Shown: one piece after another, positions 1,505-9,084 of the stretch
Layout: each line of letters opens with the position of its first letter
How positions within the stretch are numbered: position 1 is the stretch's first letter
Virus record (IMG/VR): IMGVR_UViG_2541047721_000002
Origin: a virus
Lineage: Duplodnaviria > Heunggongvirae > Uroviricota > Caudoviricetes
Strand: one strand, 5' to 3'
DNA: 11,667 nucleotides
The notes under the pieces: model-generated
Seen by the model: the letters and a program-made list of their open reading frames with translations, nothing else
Told to the model about the DNA's origin: nothing
Databases searched by the model: none
Position numbers and translations under genes: made by a program

Positions 1505-1598
1505 CTTGTTGTTCACGTCAACTGGAAATAGGGTGCCTTTTCGACCTTTACCCTGGCAACCGATTGACGGGGAAGTTGCCTTCCCCGTCGCGGTTTCC

Positions 1599-1739
1599 TT
1601 ACTGCTTACACTGTAAGAACGCCGCAAACTCCGCTCCCCAGAAACTCATCCGTATTTCACACAGCGAACCGTGCAGCATCCAGATGATGAGGATTGCCGT
1701 CACGCAGAATGTGATGGCCGTAAGCGATTTTTGCGACAT
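1599..1739 (-). CDS. Hok/Gef-family type I toxin (small membrane-depolarising peptide), 46 aa
   Basis: Not in the ORF track (too short). Minus-strand ATG at 1739 preceded by AAGGAG RBS; translation MSQKSLTAITFCVTAILIIWMLHGSLCEIRMSFWGAEFAAFLQCKQ; TAA at 1601-1599. Single N-terminal hydrophobic helix plus the Hok-family C-terminal signature SLCE(I/L)R…(E)xAAF(L/M)AC, closest in my memory to HokA-type peptides. Overlapped by a longer out-of-frame upstream ORF (mok-like) and followed by a terminator. Confidence 0.7.
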   Translation of the reverse strand: MSQKSLTAITFCVTAILIIWMLHGSLCEIRMSFWGAEFAAFLQCKQ

Positions 1740-3498: not shown

Positions 3499-4683
3499 AT
3501 GAGTGAAACTCGTTTTCATGGTGCCCGTGTTACGGAAAGTACCGACCTGGTAACAGCGATTAATGATGTTGATTCCAGCGTTATCGGTATCGTGGCAACG
3601 GCGGATGATGCGGACGCGAAGCTGTTCCCGCTGAACAAGCCCACACTGCTGACCCGCGTCAATGACGTGCTGGGAAAATGCGGGACAACGGGGACGCTTT
3701 ATCGTGCGCTTAAGGCCATCGCAGACCAGGTGAGCACAAAGGTGATCGTCGTTCGCGTGGCTGAACACAAAGAAGAAAACGGAAAGACGCAGGATCAACT
3801 GGTTATCGGTGGTTCTGAATCTGACGGCAGCTATACGGGGATGTATGCGCTGCTTGTTGCAGAGCAGGATGAAAGCATCGGATACCGTCCGCGTATTCTG
3901 GCCGCGCCGGAGCTGGACACGGAGGCGGTGACAAAATCCCTGTGCGTGATTGCGGGTAAACTGCGCGCGTTTGTGTATGCCACATGTCATGGTTGTAACA
4001 CGATGGCTGAGGCGATTACCTACCGCCAGAAATTCAACGAACGTGAGGTGATGCTCTTATGGCCTGACTTCATCGCCTACAACCCGAAAAGTGGCAAAAA
4101 CGAAACGTTCCCCGCGCCTGCTTATGCGTGCGGCCTTCGTGCGTACATTGACCATGAGCAGGGCTGGCACAAATCGCTGTCCAACGTTCCGGTTAAAAAT
4201 GTGCTGGGGATGTCGAGGCATGTGTTCTGGTCGTTACAGGCCGAAGACAGTGATGCCAACAGCCTCAACAACAAAGAAATCACGACCATTATTCGTCGTA
4301 ACGGGTTCCGCTTCTGGGGCAACCGCACACCGGAAACGAACGCCTACATCTTTGAGGTGTATACCCGAACCGCACAGGTGCTGGCTGATTCAATTGCGGA
4401 AGCGCAGTTTGAAACCATCGACAGTCCACTGACACCTGCGAACGTGAAGGATGTTATCAGCGCCATCAGAGCAAAACTGGATTCGCTGGTTACTGTCGGG
4501 AAACTGATTGGTGCGGAGTGCTGGTATGACGTGGTGGATAACAGCACCACGGGTTTACGTCAGGGGCGTGTGCGTATTCGCTACAAATATACGCCCGTTC
4601 CTCCGCTGGAAGACATGGAGCTTTACCAGTCGTTTACTGATGAATTCTTTGGTCCCGCATTTGCGGTGCTGGGAGGTGCCTGA
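3499..4683 (+). CDS. FI: contractile tail sheath protein (P2 gpFI family)
   Basis: 394-aa ORF, ATG at 3499 with AAGGGG RBS. Blocks co-linear with P2 FI: …DADA.LFPLNKP.L…, …GTLY.AL.AIADQ…, …KLRAFVYA…, …YRQ.F..RE.M..WPDF…, …DHEQGWHK.LSNV…, …IRR.GFRFWGNRT…, …Y.RTAQV.AD…, …I.Y.YTPVPPLE…. Confidence 0.93.
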   Translation: MSETRFHGARVTESTDLVTAINDVDSSVIGIVATADDADAKLFPLNKPTLLTRVNDVLGKCGTTGTLYRALKAIADQVSTKVIVVRVAEHKEENGKTQDQLVIGGSESDGSYTGMYALLVAEQDESIGYRPRILAAPELDTEAVTKSLCVIAGKLRAFVYATCHGCNTMAEAITYRQKFNEREVMLLWPDFIAYNPKSGKNETFPAPAYACGLRAYIDHEQGWHKSLSNVPVKNVLGMSRHVFWSLQAEDSDANSLNNKEITTIIRRNGFRFWGNRTPETNAYIFEVYTRTAQVLADSIAEAQFETIDSPLTPANVKDVISAIRAKLDSLVTVGKLIGAECWYDVVDNSTTGLRQGRVRIRYKYTPVPPLEDMELYQSFTDEFFGPAFAVLGGA

Positions 4684-5195
4684 TGGCTGTACCAAAACAT
4701 CTTCGCTTTTTTACGTTGTTTGTGGATGGTGAAAACGAAGTGGGTAAAGTGACATCCGTCACGCCACCCAAACTGACGCGCAAAACCGACAGCTATCGTG
4801 GTGGTGGCATGATGGGGGCGGTAAGTATTGATCTCGGTCTGGACGACTCCGCGCTTGATGCGAGTTTTGTCATGGGGGGAGCTGTTCGTGCGCTGTTCCT
4901 TAAATATGGCGGCACGATTGACGGCACGCTGCTGCGTTTTGCGGGTGAATACTACACCGATGCAGAAAGCGATCTGTATGAAATCGAGATGCGCGGGCGT
5001 GTGACGGAAATTGATATGGGGGAGGCCAAACAGGGCGAAGCCACATCACACACTTACGCTGTCAAAAACACCTACTACAAGCTGAGCGTTAACGATCGCC
5101 CGCTGTGGGAAATCGACCTGTTGAACCACATCTACCGGAAGGACGGCAAGGACATTGTGCCTGACCGCATTCGTTCCGCGCTTGGGCTTGGCTGA
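4683..5195 (+). CDS. FII: tail tube protein (P2 gpFII family)
   Basis: 170-aa ORF whose ATG (4683-4685) overlaps the FI stop TGA (4681-4683) in a TGATG arrangement; size and position immediately after the sheath gene match P2 FII. Confidence 0.88.
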   Translation: MAVPKHLRFFTLFVDGENEVGKVTSVTPPKLTRKTDSYRGGGMMGAVSIDLGLDDSALDASFVMGGAVRALFLKYGGTIDGTLLRFAGEYYTDAESDLYEIEMRGRVTEIDMGEAKQGEATSHTYAVKNTYYKLSVNDRPLWEIDLLNHIYRKDGKDIVPDRIRSALGLG

Positions 5196-5250
5196 TAAGT
5201 AATATGCAGGCGGCGCAGTGCGTCGCCTCTGACTGAAAAGGAGACAACTG

Positions 5251-5625
5251 ATGAAAGATATCGATACTGAAACCCGGAATAACACCGTAGCGGATGATGT
5301 GACGTCAGGTGAGGATATGGCTGTCGAACGTGGTGTAAAACTTTCCCGGCCAATTGAGCGTGGTGCCGAAAAAATCACATATGTGGAGATCACCGGGGCT
5401 ATTGAACAGGCTGGATCCCTGCGTGGTCTGTCTCTGTCTGATGTGCTGAATCTGAAAGCGGATACCATGTTCACGCTGTTGCCTCGCGTGACCTCGCCAC
5501 GACTGGATGAAGTGATGATTAAAAAAATGTCGTCACGCGATTTTATTCAGTTGTGCGCTGTGGCTGTAAATTTTATGAGCGAGCCAGACTCTGGCGCGAA
5601 GAGCGTGCAGGAGACGGCAGCGTAA
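5251..5625 (+). CDS. E: tail assembly chaperone E (P2 gpE; lambda gpG analogue)
   Basis: 124-aa ORF, ATG at 5251 preceded by AAAAGGAGA RBS; sits between the tube gene and the tape measure gene, with an overlapping -1 frame ORF running to 5789 as expected for E/E'. Confidence 0.75.
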   Translation: MKDIDTETRNNTVADDVTSGEDMAVERGVKLSRPIERGAEKITYVEITGAIEQAGSLRGLSLSDVLNLKADTMFTLLPRVTSPRLDEVMIKKMSSRDFIQLCAVAVNFMSEPDSGAKSVQETAA

Positions 5626-5789
5626 TCACCCTGGTGTGCTTTGAGCACATCGAAGATCTGGTGGCGGATATTGCCGCCATTTTTAACTGGTCGCCCGCCG
5701 AAATCTTCATGATGACGCCCGGCGAAGTGGTTAGCTGGCGCGAGCGGGCGGCACTTCGCAGCGGGAATGCAGACAATGAAGACTCTTGA
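5523..5789 (+). CDS. E: E' extension frame, expressed as an E+E' fusion by -1 programmed ribosomal frameshift (P2 gpE+E'; lambda gpGT analogue)
   Basis: The -1 frame relative to E is open from 5523 to TGA at 5787-5789 and overlaps the T start, as in P2. Candidate slippery sites in the overlap: A AAT TTT at 5568-5574 (fits X_XXY_YYZ in the E frame) and the A7 run at 5521-5527. The downstream E' part (SVITLVCFEHIEDLVADIAAIFNWSPAEIFMMTPGEVVSWRERAALRSG) looks protein-like. Confidence 0.6.
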   Translation, partial: KNVVTRFYSVVRCGCKFYERARLWREERAGDGSVITLVCFEHIEDLVADIAAIFNWSPAEIFMMTPGEVVSWRERAALRSGNADNEDS

Positions 5790-8583
5790 TATCCGGGTCG
5801 CTTTCAGCGCCGTTGACAGGCTGACCCGGCCTGCCGAAAACGCCCGCCGCCTGATGGGGCAGTTTGGTGACTCCATCCAGCGAACGCAGGGGGCGATCAA
5901 AAATCTCGAGCGTCAGGCGCGTTCATTTGAGCGCGCCCGTGACGCTGTCAGTAAAGCGGATGCGGGCATCGTGAAAGCACGACGCCAGCTTAACGCCCTT
6001 AATCAGTTACAACGCACGGGTACAGTGCTCAGCGAAAAACAACAAAAGCTGATGCAGCAGTTAAGCACCCGGCTTGAACGCCTGAATGAATCGCGCACAC
6101 GGGAAATTCAGAAAATGCGGGAACTTGGCGGAGAGCTGAAACGCCACGGCATTTCCCTGACAGGCAGCGATAACACCATCCAGCAGGCCATCAGACGCAC
6201 CGAACAGTACAACAACCAGCTTGAACGCGAACGGCAGGCGCTTGCGCGTGTAACGCGGGCGCGTGAGCGGTATTCGCGCGCGCAGGAAACCGCGGGAAAA
6301 CTGAAAACAGGTGGTGCGCTGGCAATTGGTGCTGCAGCGGCTGGCGGCTATGCTGCCGGGCGTTTTTTGCAGCCTGCGATCGGGTTCGGCAAAGAGATGT
6401 CCCGCGTTCAGGCACTGACGCGAATCGACAAAAACAGCCCGCAGTTTAAGGCGCTGCGTGAGCAGGCGTTAAAACTTGGTTCTGAAACACAGTTTACTGC
6501 GAGTGATGCCGCCAGTGGGCAGAGCTTTCTGGCAATGGCTGGTTTTACTCCGCAGGCCATTCAGGCCGCATTGCCCGGTGTTCTTAATATGGCGCTGGCA
6601 GGTGGCGTCGAACTCGGCGAGACGGCTGATATAGGCTCCAATATCCTCACACAGTTCAACCTGACAGCCGATCAAATGGACCGGGTTGGCGATACGCTGA
6701 CAGCAGCATTCACCCGGACCAATACTGATTTACGCGCGCTGGGCGAAACCATGAAGTATACCGGTCCGGTTGCCGCAAAACTTGGTATCAGTCTTGAAGA
6801 AGCGGCGGCCATGGCCGGGATGCTTGCCAATAATGGTCTTCGCGGAAGCGATGCTGGTACGGCCATGCGCGCAAGTCTGTCCCGCCTTGCATCACCGCCA
6901 AAAGCTGCGGCTGATGCACTGAAAGAGCTGGGGGTGTCAGTTGCTGACGCCAGAGGCAAAATGCGCCCGATGGAGGATGTGCTGCTTGATCTCTATAAGG
7001 CGACACAAAAATACGGACAGGTGGACCAGGTTTCCTTCTTCAAGGACATCGCCGGAGAAGAGGCGTTCGTTGGTTTACAGACGCTTGTTGCGGCGGCTGG
7101 TTCAGGAGAGCTGCAAAAACTGACCAGAGAATTGCAGGGGGCAAGGGGAGAGGCCGATCGCGTTGCAAAAGTAATGGCCGATAATCTTGATGGGGACCTG
7201 AAAAATCTCGACAGCGCATGGGAAGGTCTTCGTATTCGCATCAGTGATCTGGTTGACGGTCCGCTGCGTTCTGTCACGCAGTGGCTCACGCGGGTGCTTG
7301 AAAAAATCACCTCGCTGGCGCAGGCCCATCCGGTACTGACGCGCCAGCTACTGATAGCAGGCGGTGCGTTGCTGGCAATGACTGCAACGATTGGCTCGTT
7401 GTCGCTGGTTATTGGGGTGCTTTACGGAAAGCTGGCCACCCTGCGTCTTGGTTTTGACATTCTTACCCGGTCAATGAATGTCGTCCGGGTGTTGCCTGCG
7501 CTGTGGGGAATGCTGACGGGTTCTGTTTCTTTGCTGGGAGGCGCTATCGGGGCGCTGTTCAGTCCGGTTGGATTGATTGCTGCTGCGTTTGTGGCTGCGG
7601 CGGTTCTCATCTGGAAATACTGGGAACCCATTAAGGCGTTTTATGCCGGGGTGTTCAACGGGATTATGGAAAGGCTGACCCCGTTGCGCGAAACCTTTGA
7701 ACGGTTTGGTCCTGTTTTTGACGCAATCGGAAGCGGGATCAGCCAGGTGTTTAACTGGTTTAAATCGCTGCTGTCACCGATGGAGTCCAGCAAGGAAACG
7801 CTGGATAAATGTACCAGTGCTGGCGAGATATTCGGTAACGTTCTTGGTGGCGCGTTACAGCTTGTTCTGACGCCTGCAAAAATGTTGCTGGATACGCTGG
7901 CGTGGATACTTGAAAAACTCGGTGTTCTTCCGGATGAAGCGGAAAGGGCGAGAAAGAAAATCGAAGACGTACAGCGTGCGGCCATTCTTCAGGACAAGGT
8001 TACCTTGCTTCAGGGGGACCTGGCGAAAATCAATCCGCCGAAGCCTGTGGAAAATGGCAATGGCACCGGAGGTGATAACCCCAAAGACAATAAACCGCTC
8101 ACAGACAGCAATACCGGGACGCTGCGCAGACTCAGCAAAATTGCTGATAACACAGGTAAGCTGGTTGAGGAGACGAAAAAACGCATTGGCCCCGGCGATA
8201 TTGTCTTTAAAAACCTGCCCCGAGCACTTGCTGTTCGTGGGGAGTGGCAGGAGCGGAAGATTGCGCAGGTCAGTAAGCCTGCCCCCGCAATTAATATCAC
8301 ACCCGTGGTCCCGGCTCCGCTGCCTCCGGCGCTGGTCCCTGTTGTTGCGGCCAGCTCCCGCCCGGTGGCGGAGGCCATACGATCTCCAGTGGCATCAGTT
8401 CCTGTAACTTCCCGTAACCGGGAGCCTGTTGCCTCCGGATTTGGTGGTGAAATTCATGTTCATCTGCATAACGTTGTTACGCAGAATCCCCGCGAACTGG
8501 CGAAACTGGTCGGTGAAATGGTCAGGGCAGAAATGGAACGGCGTGCCCGTGCCGGGCGTGGCAGTTTTTACGATAAAGATTGA
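5767..8583 (+). CDS. T: tail tape measure protein (P2 gpT family)
   Basis: 938-aa ORF, the largest in the cluster, directly after E/E'. It has an N-terminal coiled-coil region rich in Q/R/E/L, a central hydrophobic segment (~7320-7640) and a Pro/Val/Ala-rich C-terminus. Start could be ATG 5767 or ATG 5776. Confidence 0.9.
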   Translation: MQTMKTLDIRVAFSAVDRLTRPAENARRLMGQFGDSIQRTQGAIKNLERQARSFERARDAVSKADAGIVKARRQLNALNQLQRTGTVLSEKQQKLMQQLSTRLERLNESRTREIQKMRELGGELKRHGISLTGSDNTIQQAIRRTEQYNNQLERERQALARVTRARERYSRAQETAGKLKTGGALAIGAAAAGGYAAGRFLQPAIGFGKEMSRVQALTRIDKNSPQFKALREQALKLGSETQFTASDAASGQSFLAMAGFTPQAIQAALPGVLNMALAGGVELGETADIGSNILTQFNLTADQMDRVGDTLTAAFTRTNTDLRALGETMKYTGPVAAKLGISLEEAAAMAGMLANNGLRGSDAGTAMRASLSRLASPPKAAADALKELGVSVADARGKMRPMEDVLLDLYKATQKYGQVDQVSFFKDIAGEEAFVGLQTLVAAAGSGELQKLTRELQGARGEADRVAKVMADNLDGDLKNLDSAWEGLRIRISDLVDGPLRSVTQWLTRVLEKITSLAQAHPVLTRQLLIAGGALLAMTATIGSLSLVIGVLYGKLATLRLGFDILTRSMNVVRVLPALWGMLTGSVSLLGGAIGALFSPVGLIAAAFVAAAVLIWKYWEPIKAFYAGVFNGIMERLTPLRETFERFGPVFDAIGSGISQVFNWFKSLLSPMESSKETLDKCTSAGEIFGNVLGGALQLVLTPAKMLLDTLAWILEKLGVLPDEAERARKKIEDVQRAAILQDKVTLLQGDLAKINPPKPVENGNGTGGDNPKDNKPLTDSNTGTLRRLSKIADNTGKLVEETKKRIGPGDIVFKNLPRALAVRGEWQERKIAQVSKPAPAINITPVVPAPLPPALVPVVAASSRPVAEAIRSPVASVPVTSRNREPVASGFGGEIHVHLHNVVTQNPRELAKLVGEMVRAEMERRARAGRGSFYDKD

Positions 8584-8589
8584 GGAGTC

Positions 8590-9084
8590 ATGGCCATGAT
8601 GATGATCTATGGCATGTTTGTTTTTGAGCTGCGCACATTGCCGCATCAGCAGTTACAGCAAAACAAAAGCTGGCGGCATGTGAAAAATGAACGCGTTAAT
8701 CGTTCAGCAAGCTGGCAGTATATCGGCGCAGGTGATGATCGCATCGTGCTTTCCGGCGTGCTTTATCCTGAAATTACAGGTGGCGAAGTGTCGCTTTCGT
8801 TGCTGACCACGCAGGCATATACAGGACGCCCCTGGCCTCTGATTGATGGTGTCGGGCAGATTTACGGCATGTATGTACTGACTGAAACGAATACGACCCG
8901 TTCCGAGTTTGATCGCTACGGTAAGGCGAAAAAGATAGAATTTTCACTGACTCTTGAACGCTGTGATGAGGATTTGCGGGAGCGCCTGCAATCCTCATCG
9001 TTCAGTGATATGCTGTCCGGCTTCAAAGATAAGGTCACATCATCCCTTAACAGCGCGGCCAGCTCCGTTAAAGGGCTGTTTTGA
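8590..9084 (+). CDS. U: tail protein U (P2 gpU family)
   Basis: 164-aa ORF, ATG at 8590 with GAGGAG RBS, immediately after T. N-terminus (M)MMIYGMFVFELRTLP… and overall size match P2 gpU. Confidence 0.88.
   Translation: MAMMMIYGMFVFELRTLPHQQLQQNKSWRHVKNERVNRSASWQYIGAGDDRIVLSGVLYPEITGGEVSLSLLTTQAYTGRPWPLIDGVGQIYGMYVLTETNTTRSEFDRYGKAKKIEFSLTLERCDEDLRERLQSSSFSDMLSGFKDKVTSSLNSAASSVKGLF

Follow-up and report, generated by a model that had tools for sequence, protein, structure and literature searches.

The window analyzed here (11,667 nucleotides; IMG/VR record IMGVR_UViG_2541047721_000002) comes from a Xuanwuvirus (P88-like, Peduoviridae) prophage and comprises its FI-FII-E-E'-T-U tail operon, and the question it raises is how its E' reading frame is translated. 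As far as can be judged from sequence, E' appears to have no translation start of its own, and TTTTTTG, the heptamer at which phage P2 shifts frame, is absent from the overlap between E and the -1 frame, where the homologous position (5571-5577) reads TTTTATG. The initial annotation predicted a -1 programmed ribosomal frameshift producing an E+E' tail assembly chaperone, and this reading is favored by the operon order, a PF06528 match, the homology of E to gpE and a site homologous to that of P2. We conclude that the window probably encodes an ordinary P2-type -1 frameshift making E+E', operating from an overlapping heptamer on the 5' side of the P2 position.

The tail operon and its genes

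Over the 700 bases around the site, nucleotide identity is 98% with Xuanwuvirus P88_4B11 and with Citrobacter phage Shae_phiSM (phiSM), and approximately 86% with phages P88, 500465-2, and Chuche, all of which are Peduoviridae. The order of the genes as identified with Pfam is sheath (PF04984), tube (PF04985), E, E' (PF06528, in the -1 frame), tape measure (PF10145), and U (PF06995), and the surroundings of E and E' have the FETUD layout of P2. The coordinates of the features discussed here are collected in Table 1.

Gene E starts at the ATG at 5251, with a Shine-Dalgarno sequence (GGAG) at 5240-5243, and ends with a TAA at 5623-5625, where the initial annotation had placed the end of the frame. 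It matches phrog_103 ('tail protein'; E 4e-36), and in tblastn comparisons is 34–35% identical to the gpE proteins of P2, L-413C, and 186 (E 1e-6 to 1e-7). The match to Pfam PF10109 (Phage_TAC_7) reaches only 18 bits (E 0.003) against a gathering cut-off of 25 bits; the homology to gpE appears from the sequence comparisons to be real, though it does not reach the curated Pfam threshold. Searches of NCBIfam with E and E' gave zero matches, and a PDB sequence search with the fusion protein gave a chance match only (E 0.32), so there is no solved homologue for comparison. The tape measure gene T begins with the ATG at 5767 in its longest open reading frame, and in relatives is annotated from the position equal to 5776.

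The -1 frame had been described as open from 5523 to 5789 and overlapping the tape measure start, and the stop codons on either side and the T start codon are as expected from that description; it overlaps E by 100 nt and T by 23 nt. It contains a match to PF06528 (Phage_P2_GpE) of 46.3 bits (cut-off 23; E 2.9e-12), which spans nt 5661-5768 and positions 1-36 of the 37-position profile, and which places the arrangement beyond coincidence. The -1 product also matches phrog_1756 (129 bits, E 7.8e-38), in an alignment that begins at the first residue past the slip site. A terminator-like hairpin at 5659-5679 with a T run lies inside E', and was rejected as a conserved element as it is not kept across clades.

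Table 1. Positions of genes, reading frames, and sequence elements in the window.
Feature	Coordinates	Strand	Basis
Gene FII, tail tube protein, directly upstream of E	4683..5195	+	PF04985, E 2.1e-45
Gene E, tail assembly chaperone, zero-frame product (124 aa, 13.5 kDa)	5251..5625	+	Open reading frame; phrog_103
A7 run, judged not to be a functional slip site	5521..5527	+	Reads ATT AAA AAA ATG in the E frame
Whole open -1 frame	5523..5789	+	Bounded by TAA 5520-5522 and TGA 5787-5789
Proposed slippery heptamer A_AAT_TTT (P-site Asn AAU, A-site Phe UUU; core U_UUU 5571-5574)	5568..5574	+	E phase; conservation
TTTTATG, degenerate remnant of the canonical P2 heptamer T_TTT_TTG	5571..5577	+	Codon alignment with P88, 500465-2, Chuche, L-413C, 186, and others
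E' frame as read after the shift, 71 codons and TGA	5574..5789	+	Translation; phrog_1756; PF06528; within-lineage variants
Dual-coding overlap: E C-terminal tail (frame 0) and W..ER.GDG. motif of E' (frame -1)	5578..5625	+	Phase entropy; synonymous/non-synonymous ratios
ORF annotated in databases as a separate 'GpE family phage tail protein', GTG start at 5634	5634..5789	+	Database annotations
Gene T, tail tape measure protein, start overlapping the end of E'	5767..8583	+	PF10145, E 1.6e-56
gpU	8590-9084		PF06995

The proposed slip site and its variants

The first of two candidate slip sites offered by the initial annotation, AAATTTT, is in phase with E and reads GTA AAT TTT, fitting the X_XXY_YYZ pattern as claimed. 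In a codon alignment covering the final 42 codons of E in 16 phages, the P2 heptamer GGT TTT TTG aligns exactly on AAT TTT ATG of the window; the homologous codons are AAT TTT TTG in P88, 500465-2, and Chuche, and GGT TTT TTG in L-413C, 186, and YenM_201.16. The candidate thus overlaps the exact position of the P2 TTTTTTG, one codon upstream, and the expectation that the site would be a variant of that of P2 is borne out by the comparison of AAT TTT ATG with the P88-type AAT TTT TTG. The P88 type reads GTA AAT TTT TTG and so carries two overlapping heptamers, A_AAT_TTT and T_TTT_TTG, whereas in the window a derived change, T5575A (TTG to ATG, replacing Leu with Met in E), breaks the canonical T_TTT_TTG and leaves A_AAT_TTT as the only heptamer. 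By our own estimate about 0.13 in-phase X_XXY_YYZ heptamers are expected by chance in 33 codons, so that finding one is only mildly unlikely; A_AAT_TTT carries weight because its position is exactly homologous to that of the P2 site. The 10-nt site has one polymorphism in four clades, where roughly ten are predicted from the synonymous rates of the flanking E codons (again our own estimate). Together, the sequence comparisons support a slip site within 5568-5577.

A survey of the aligned position covered 289 loci, drawn from GenBank phages and from four scans of IMG/VR. The window type, GTA AAT TTT ATG, is present in 82 loci besides the window and has the 5' heptamer only; the P88 type, GTA AAT TTT TTG (82 loci), has both, and A_AAT_TTT is invariant throughout these two groups. 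The Reipivirus type, GTC CCT TTC TTG (60 loci), likewise has the 5' heptamer only. In the Novemvirus type (about 45 loci), GTC or GTG is followed by CCT TTT and either TTG or TTA, and both heptamers are present if the preceding codon is GTC, but only the 3' one if it is GTG. The 3' heptamer alone is found in 14 loci with ACG or ACA followed by CCT TTT and TTG or TTA, and in the five loci of the P2 type, GGT TTT followed by TTG or TTT. At least one in-phase heptamer is present at the aligned spot in all but four of the 289 loci, the exceptions being three decayed copies and Mannheimia PHL101, whose site lies elsewhere. Each flanking heptamer has been lost in at least one successful lineage, and NNT TTY is found in every intact locus surveyed.

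An ATG at the 5575 codon occurs only in the lineage of the window, with TTG, TTA, or TTT in other clades, and is therefore the derived state. The exact 80-nt context of the site is present in 599 of 5,426 complete E. coli genomes (approximately 11%), with 520 records at 99% identity or above; the P88-type context is found in 820 complete E. coli genomes. The slip site of phiSM is identical to that of the window, and phiSM forms plaques and lysogens (PMC6456863). The variant site is thus viable and common, and a literature search combining AAATTTT, frameshift, and tail returned nothing relevant.

Selection switches frame at the proposed slip site

Alignment of relatives had been proposed as a way to locate where conservation of the -1 frame begins, and in 37 representatives with mutual identity below 97% it begins at the 5568-5577 site. 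In these sequences, variation up to 5567, including the interval from the A7 run to the site, peaks at the third positions of E codons, with entropies of 1.32-1.43 compared with 0.46-0.88 elsewhere. Between 5578 and 5625 all three phases are damped (0.59-0.77) and the E third position falls to 0.59, as is expected of dual coding, and after 5626 the third positions of the -1 frame dominate, at about 1.0 vs 0.3-0.6.

Ratios of synonymous to non-synonymous diversity in 32 long-E representatives follow the same course. For frame 0 and frame -1, respectively, they are 1.64 and 0.13 upstream (5362-5520), 0.91 and 0.20 from the A7 run to the site (5521-5567), 0.48 and 0.58 in the overlap (5578-5622), and 0.25 and 1.33 in the E'-only region (5626-5766). 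Judged by codon phase, it is therefore the E frame that is conserved before the slip site and the -1 frame that is conserved after it. Within the overlap, the W..ER.GDG. motif of the -1 frame is conserved across clades and nt 5611-5617 are almost invariant. The phase switch, the motif, and the start of the phrog_1756 alignment together indicate that -1-frame translation begins at the site, and at neither the E stop codon nor the A7 run.

The database records of the lineage imply a different route, in which E' is translated alone from the GTG at 5634 as a 51-aa protein with no frameshift. Annotation of a separate 'GpE family phage tail protein' is found for P88_4B11, P88, 500465-2, Chuche, and E. 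coli E2348/69, in line with RefSeq, GenBank, and PGAP. However, there is no Shine-Dalgarno sequence 5-16 nt upstream of this GTG, and in 10 of 14 long-E representatives the stretch of -1 frame that runs from the slip site to the conserved ADIA motif lacks any ATG, GTG, or TTG. The -1-frame peptide, moreover, is already conserved upstream of the E stop and ahead of the annotated start, and the account of P2 in PMC3091744 gives the product as an E+E' fusion. We regard independent initiation as very unlikely, and judge the separate E' ORF to be an annotation artefact of the frameshift.

Variation inside the lineage of the window (82 loci, 42 haplotypes) bears on E' directly. Read in frame -1, the E'-only region has 13 synonymous and 4 non-synonymous variants, and read in frame 0 it has 2 and 15, so E' has stayed under purifying selection at the protein level although the canonical heptamer has been lost; each of the 82 loci has an intact E' ORF. 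The 48-nt overlap has just two variants in the lineage, both synonymous in frame 0, and is too sparse there to tell which frame is selected, so for this segment the cross-clade comparison carries the argument.

Slipperiness and stimulatory elements

In a systematic reporter study in E. coli, R_RRU_UUY motifs are prone to frameshifting because tRNA-Phe re-pairs cognately (PMC4066793). AAAUUUU shifts at 0.070% without a stimulator (reporter background 0.055%), 0.355% with the IS911 stimulators, and 11.4% with the IS3 pseudoknot, and the corresponding values for UUUUUUG are 0.118%, 0.247%, and 0.77% (PMC4066793 and its supplement). By these figures, the heptamer remaining in the window is at least equal to the lost one when stimulated, and is at background when unstimulated.

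Searches for a stimulator were made both downstream and upstream of the site. The 86-nt downstream region folds no better than shuffled sequences (z -1.15), and RNAalifold on 14 relatives gave -0.22 kcal/mol with two pairs and zero covariation, with no consensus structure. No Shine-Dalgarno-like (GGAGG-like) element is present in 5545-5567. A hairpin 8 nt past the heptamer (GCCAG-ACU-CUGGC, 5583-5595) was considered as a stimulator and set aside, as P88-type relatives do not keep it (3 of 5 pairs). That no stimulator was found is the chief weak point of the proposed mechanism, and it holds equally for the validated P2 site, with 0.118% unstimulated; the same lack is reported for P2 and for phages KS5, KS14, and KL3 (PMC3091744).

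These values also bear on the proposal that the TTG-to-ATG change abolished frameshifting, and that the lineage either lacks E+E', with defective tails in a decaying prophage, or no longer needs it. The canonical T_TTT_TTG is indeed gone, the remaining AAAUUUU is at background in the unstimulated reporter (PMC4066793), and a stimulator was found neither in the downstream fold nor in the consensus of 14 relatives. Set against this are the purifying selection on E' (13 to 4) and its intact ORF in 82 of 82 window-type loci, the presence of the lineage in 11% of complete E. coli genomes, and the identical site of phiSM, a plaque-forming temperate phage (PMC6456863); a second lineage (C_CCT_TTC) has similarly lost the 3' heptamer and kept the 5' one. 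Loss of frameshifting is on this evidence also very unlikely.

Very unlikely, too, is a shift at the A7 run, the other candidate of the initial annotation, through slippage of tRNA-Lys on AAA_AAA or an extra A added by RNA polymerase. The run is where it was said to be and, with the -1 frame open from 5523 in the window, a shift there would be productive; tRNA-Lys is notably shift-prone in E. coli (PMC4066793), and E. coli genes contain fewer A7 and U7 runs than expected, possibly through transcriptional slippage. But its phasing, U_AAA_AAA, forms no X_XXY_YYZ heptamer, A_AAA is the weakest of six active tetramers (PMC4066793), and 5521-5567 evolves as E-frame coding only (third-position entropy 1.34 vs 0.74; frame -1 ratio 0.20). 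P88-type relatives keep the run yet have a -1-frame TGA five codons later, before the heptamer, and a synonymous CGC-to-CGT change makes the same TGA in three of the 82 loci of the window type, two of which lie on contigs of 35-38 kb; these stops show that the A7 route is dispensable and not conserved. Its 179-aa product, with E residues 93-108 (MSSRDFIQLCAVAVNF) replaced by NVVTRFYSVVRCGCKF, would also drop a conserved part of the E domain. We judge that the run is not the functional slip site.

Proposed mechanism and products

In the P2-type frameshift that we favor, a small fraction of the ribosomes translating E would slip back one base within 5568-5577. The tRNA-Phe on UUU at 5572-5574 is predicted to re-pair perfectly with UUU at 5571-5573, either as part of a tandem slip on A_AAU_UUU in which the P-site tRNA-Asn moves from AAU to AAA, or as a single-tRNA slip of tRNA-Phe on U_UUU. 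The two routes would give an identical protein and are computationally indistinguishable. The anatomy of the locus, its homology, the place of the frame switch, and the selection on E' are seen directly in the sequences, whereas slippage itself, its exact register, and its efficiency are what we infer. The next codon after the slip would be UAU at 5574-5576, from where the -1 frame would be read through to the TGA that closes it. The predicted E+E' protein consists of E residues 1-108 and 71 E' residues (179 aa, 20.0 kDa), with the junction ...AVAVNF|YERARLW... and a predicted tryptic junction peptide DFIQLCAVAVNFYER, and would be made alongside the normal 124-aa E. The lineage would thus have lost the 3' T_TTT_TTG and would rely on the 5' heptamer that P88-type relatives also carry.

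The roles of the two products can be proposed by analogy with G and GT of lambda, where they are established knowledge. The shared E part would bind the tape measure protein T and the E' part would recruit the tube protein, so that the tail would polymerize around the tape measure at a fixed ratio of E to E+E'.

A broader interpretation, which we put forward as speculative and rather doubtful, is that what stays constant throughout the family is the tetramer U_UUY at the conserved Phe codon, and not T_TTT_TTG. The shift of the P2 E/E' family would then basically be a single-tRNA-Phe slip, with the 5' and 3' heptamers as interchangeable accessories, and an unrecognized non-structural stimulator (nascent peptide or codon context) would set its efficiency.

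Annotation and prevalence

RefSeq and GenBank records of this lineage give a 51-aa E' from an unsupported GTG, and would be better served by a ribosomal-slippage join of E and E' encoding 179 aa. Because the lineage occurs in approximately 11% of complete E. coli genomes, ST131 and EPEC E2348/69 among them, many records are affected. The lineage also appears to be a natural experiment in which the T_TTT_TTG of P2 is dispensable where an overlapping X_XXU_UUY heptamer exists, and the independent losses of the 3' heptamer provide an inexpensive means of asking which tRNA slips in the family.

Comparison with known systems

The closest described system is the gpE/gpE+E' pair of P2, with counterparts in L-413C, whose record annotates E+E' as a -1 frameshift product, and in 186, whose record annotates orf52 as probably a frameshift product from orf51. 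As in these phages, the pair in the window lies between the tube and tape measure genes, E is a homologue at 34% identity, the -1 frame encodes the GpE' domain (PF06528), E' shares sequence with both the 3' end of E and the 5' end of T, and the slip position is homologous, at a conserved Phe codon. There are several differences. P2 uses T_TTT_TTG (GGT TTT TTG), whereas the window has A_AAT_TTT one codon upstream and ATG in place of TTG; the site precedes the E stop by 8 codons in P2 and by 17-18 codons in the window, and the window E has a longer N-terminus. The P2 shift at TTTTTTG yields an E of 91 aa and an E+E' of 142 aa, as given in the account of P2 in PMC3091744, compared with the predicted 124 and 179 aa here. 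The window thus departs from P2 in the T_TTT_TTG feature, and by its sequence appears to share all of the architectural and evolutionary ones.

P88, 500465-2, and Chuche (Xuanwuvirus and Gemsvirus) are similar to the window in their operon, E length class, GTA AAT TTT context, A_AAT_TTT heptamer, and A7 run, but retain T_TTT_TTG as a second overlapping heptamer (A_AAT_TTT_TTG), and their -1 frame is closed by a TGA that lies after the A7 run and before the site. The Klebsiella Reipivirus type (ST16-OXA48phi5.4 and 59 IMG/VR loci) parallels the window in that its 3' heptamer is destroyed (TTT to TTC) and its 5' C_CCT_TTC is kept at the same aligned position; it differs in genus and host and in its heptamer, CCCUUUC, which is the best UUY-type motif in the E. 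coli reporter, reaching 23% with the IS3 pseudoknot (PMC4066793). The lineage of the window and the Reipivirus type lost the 3' heptamer independently.

The wider precedent is the conserved tail-chaperone frameshift of long-tailed phages, attributed to Xu, Hendrix and Duda (2004) where it is cited in PMC3091744 and PMC5009743. In lambda gpG/gpGT, too, there are two overlapping ORFs between the tube (major tail) and tape measure genes and both products are assembly chaperones; lambda is a siphovirus, unlike the contractile-tailed phage here, and the likeness is one of arrangement, with no sequence homology claimed. The lambda G/GT site is a different heptamer, and tail-chaperone slip sites vary between phages. 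Compared with the canonical bacterial -1 signals (dnaX, IS3/IS911), the window has the same kind of in-phase X_XXY_YYZ heptamer, but neither a downstream stem-loop or pseudoknot nor an upstream Shine-Dalgarno-like stimulator was found in it. What the window holds is the known P2 E/E+E' system with a modest variation in its slip site, and the understanding of that system is in outline unchanged.

Dual coding in the E/E' overlap

In the stretch where the tail assembly chaperone gene E (frame 0) and its predicted frameshift extension E' (frame -1) overlap, window positions 5599-5622 around GGCGGAGACGGAG are near-invariant in every codon phase among clades whose sequences are otherwise 40-50% different, as seen at the equivalent positions of the surveyed loci L005-L008 and L224-L231. 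The segment encodes ..AETE.. in frame 0 and ..ERGGDGE.. in frame -1, and this dual coding probably explains the near-invariance; a role at the nucleotide level, such as frameshift stimulation, may also be played. The limits on insertions and deletions in the dual-coding stretch are illustrated by one locus (L214, IMGVR_UViG_2903322901_000003), in which a 6-nt GAGGCG within the overlap is duplicated, adding two residues in each frame and leaving both frames intact.

Decayed copies of E/E' were found at three IMG/VR loci. In L143, which is of the P88 type, E' is shortened to 28 codons past the E stop, in L235 the slip site reads TTT TAG, and in L294 the frame relationship is lost. Defective prophage copies exist yet are rare, at about 1% of loci.

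Additional features of the tail region

Hairpins and small ORFs in and near the tail operon
Feature	Location	Strand	Description
GC-rich hairpin, 8 bp	window 5208-5228	+	AGGCGGCG-CAGTG-CGTCGCCT; between the FII (tail tube) stop and the E Shine-Dalgarno
Hairpin resembling an intrinsic terminator	window 5659-5679, T run 5680-5684	+	TGGTGGCGG-ATA-TTGCCGCCA; 9 pairs, then TTTTT
Small ORF annotated 'MokW-like host killing' (hok/mok-type toxin)	L001 2399-2539 (~window 1598-1738)	-	P88_4B11 record
ORF matching the P88_4B11 MokW-like ORF, 46 aa	window 1599-1739	-	ORF prediction

The terminator-like hairpin lies within the E' coding sequence, approximately 85 nt 5' of the start of the tape measure gene T. 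In the clade comparison its stem is present only in the window-type lineage (slip site GTA AAT TTT ATG) and Yersinia phage YenM_201.16, and its disruption in P88 and most other clades makes it probable that the hairpin is a side effect of encoding ADIAAIF. The MokW-like ORF of P88_4B11 is located a few kbp upstream of the tail operon.

The tail tube gene (window 4683-5195, with equivalents in L001, L002 and L016) matches PF04985 (E 2e-45). In several RefSeq phage records it carries the label 'head closure', a mis-annotation that has been propagated. The electron-microscopic description of Citrobacter phage Shae_phiSM (L003, OR565851.1) classes it as a siphovirus and gives it a long, non-contractile tail (PMC6456863); the phage genome contains a complete P2-type contractile-tail module, including sheath, tube, E, T and U genes, that is 98% identical to that of the window. 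The gene labels in its GenBank record are displaced: 'late control gene D protein' is applied to the sheath gene, and 'ogr/Delta-like zinc finger' to the gpD-like gene.

The FII-E intergenic hairpin is not followed by a T run and may modulate transcription of E, T and U relative to the sheath and tube genes; in phage 186, a partial terminator, tI, is annotated at the same intergenic position.
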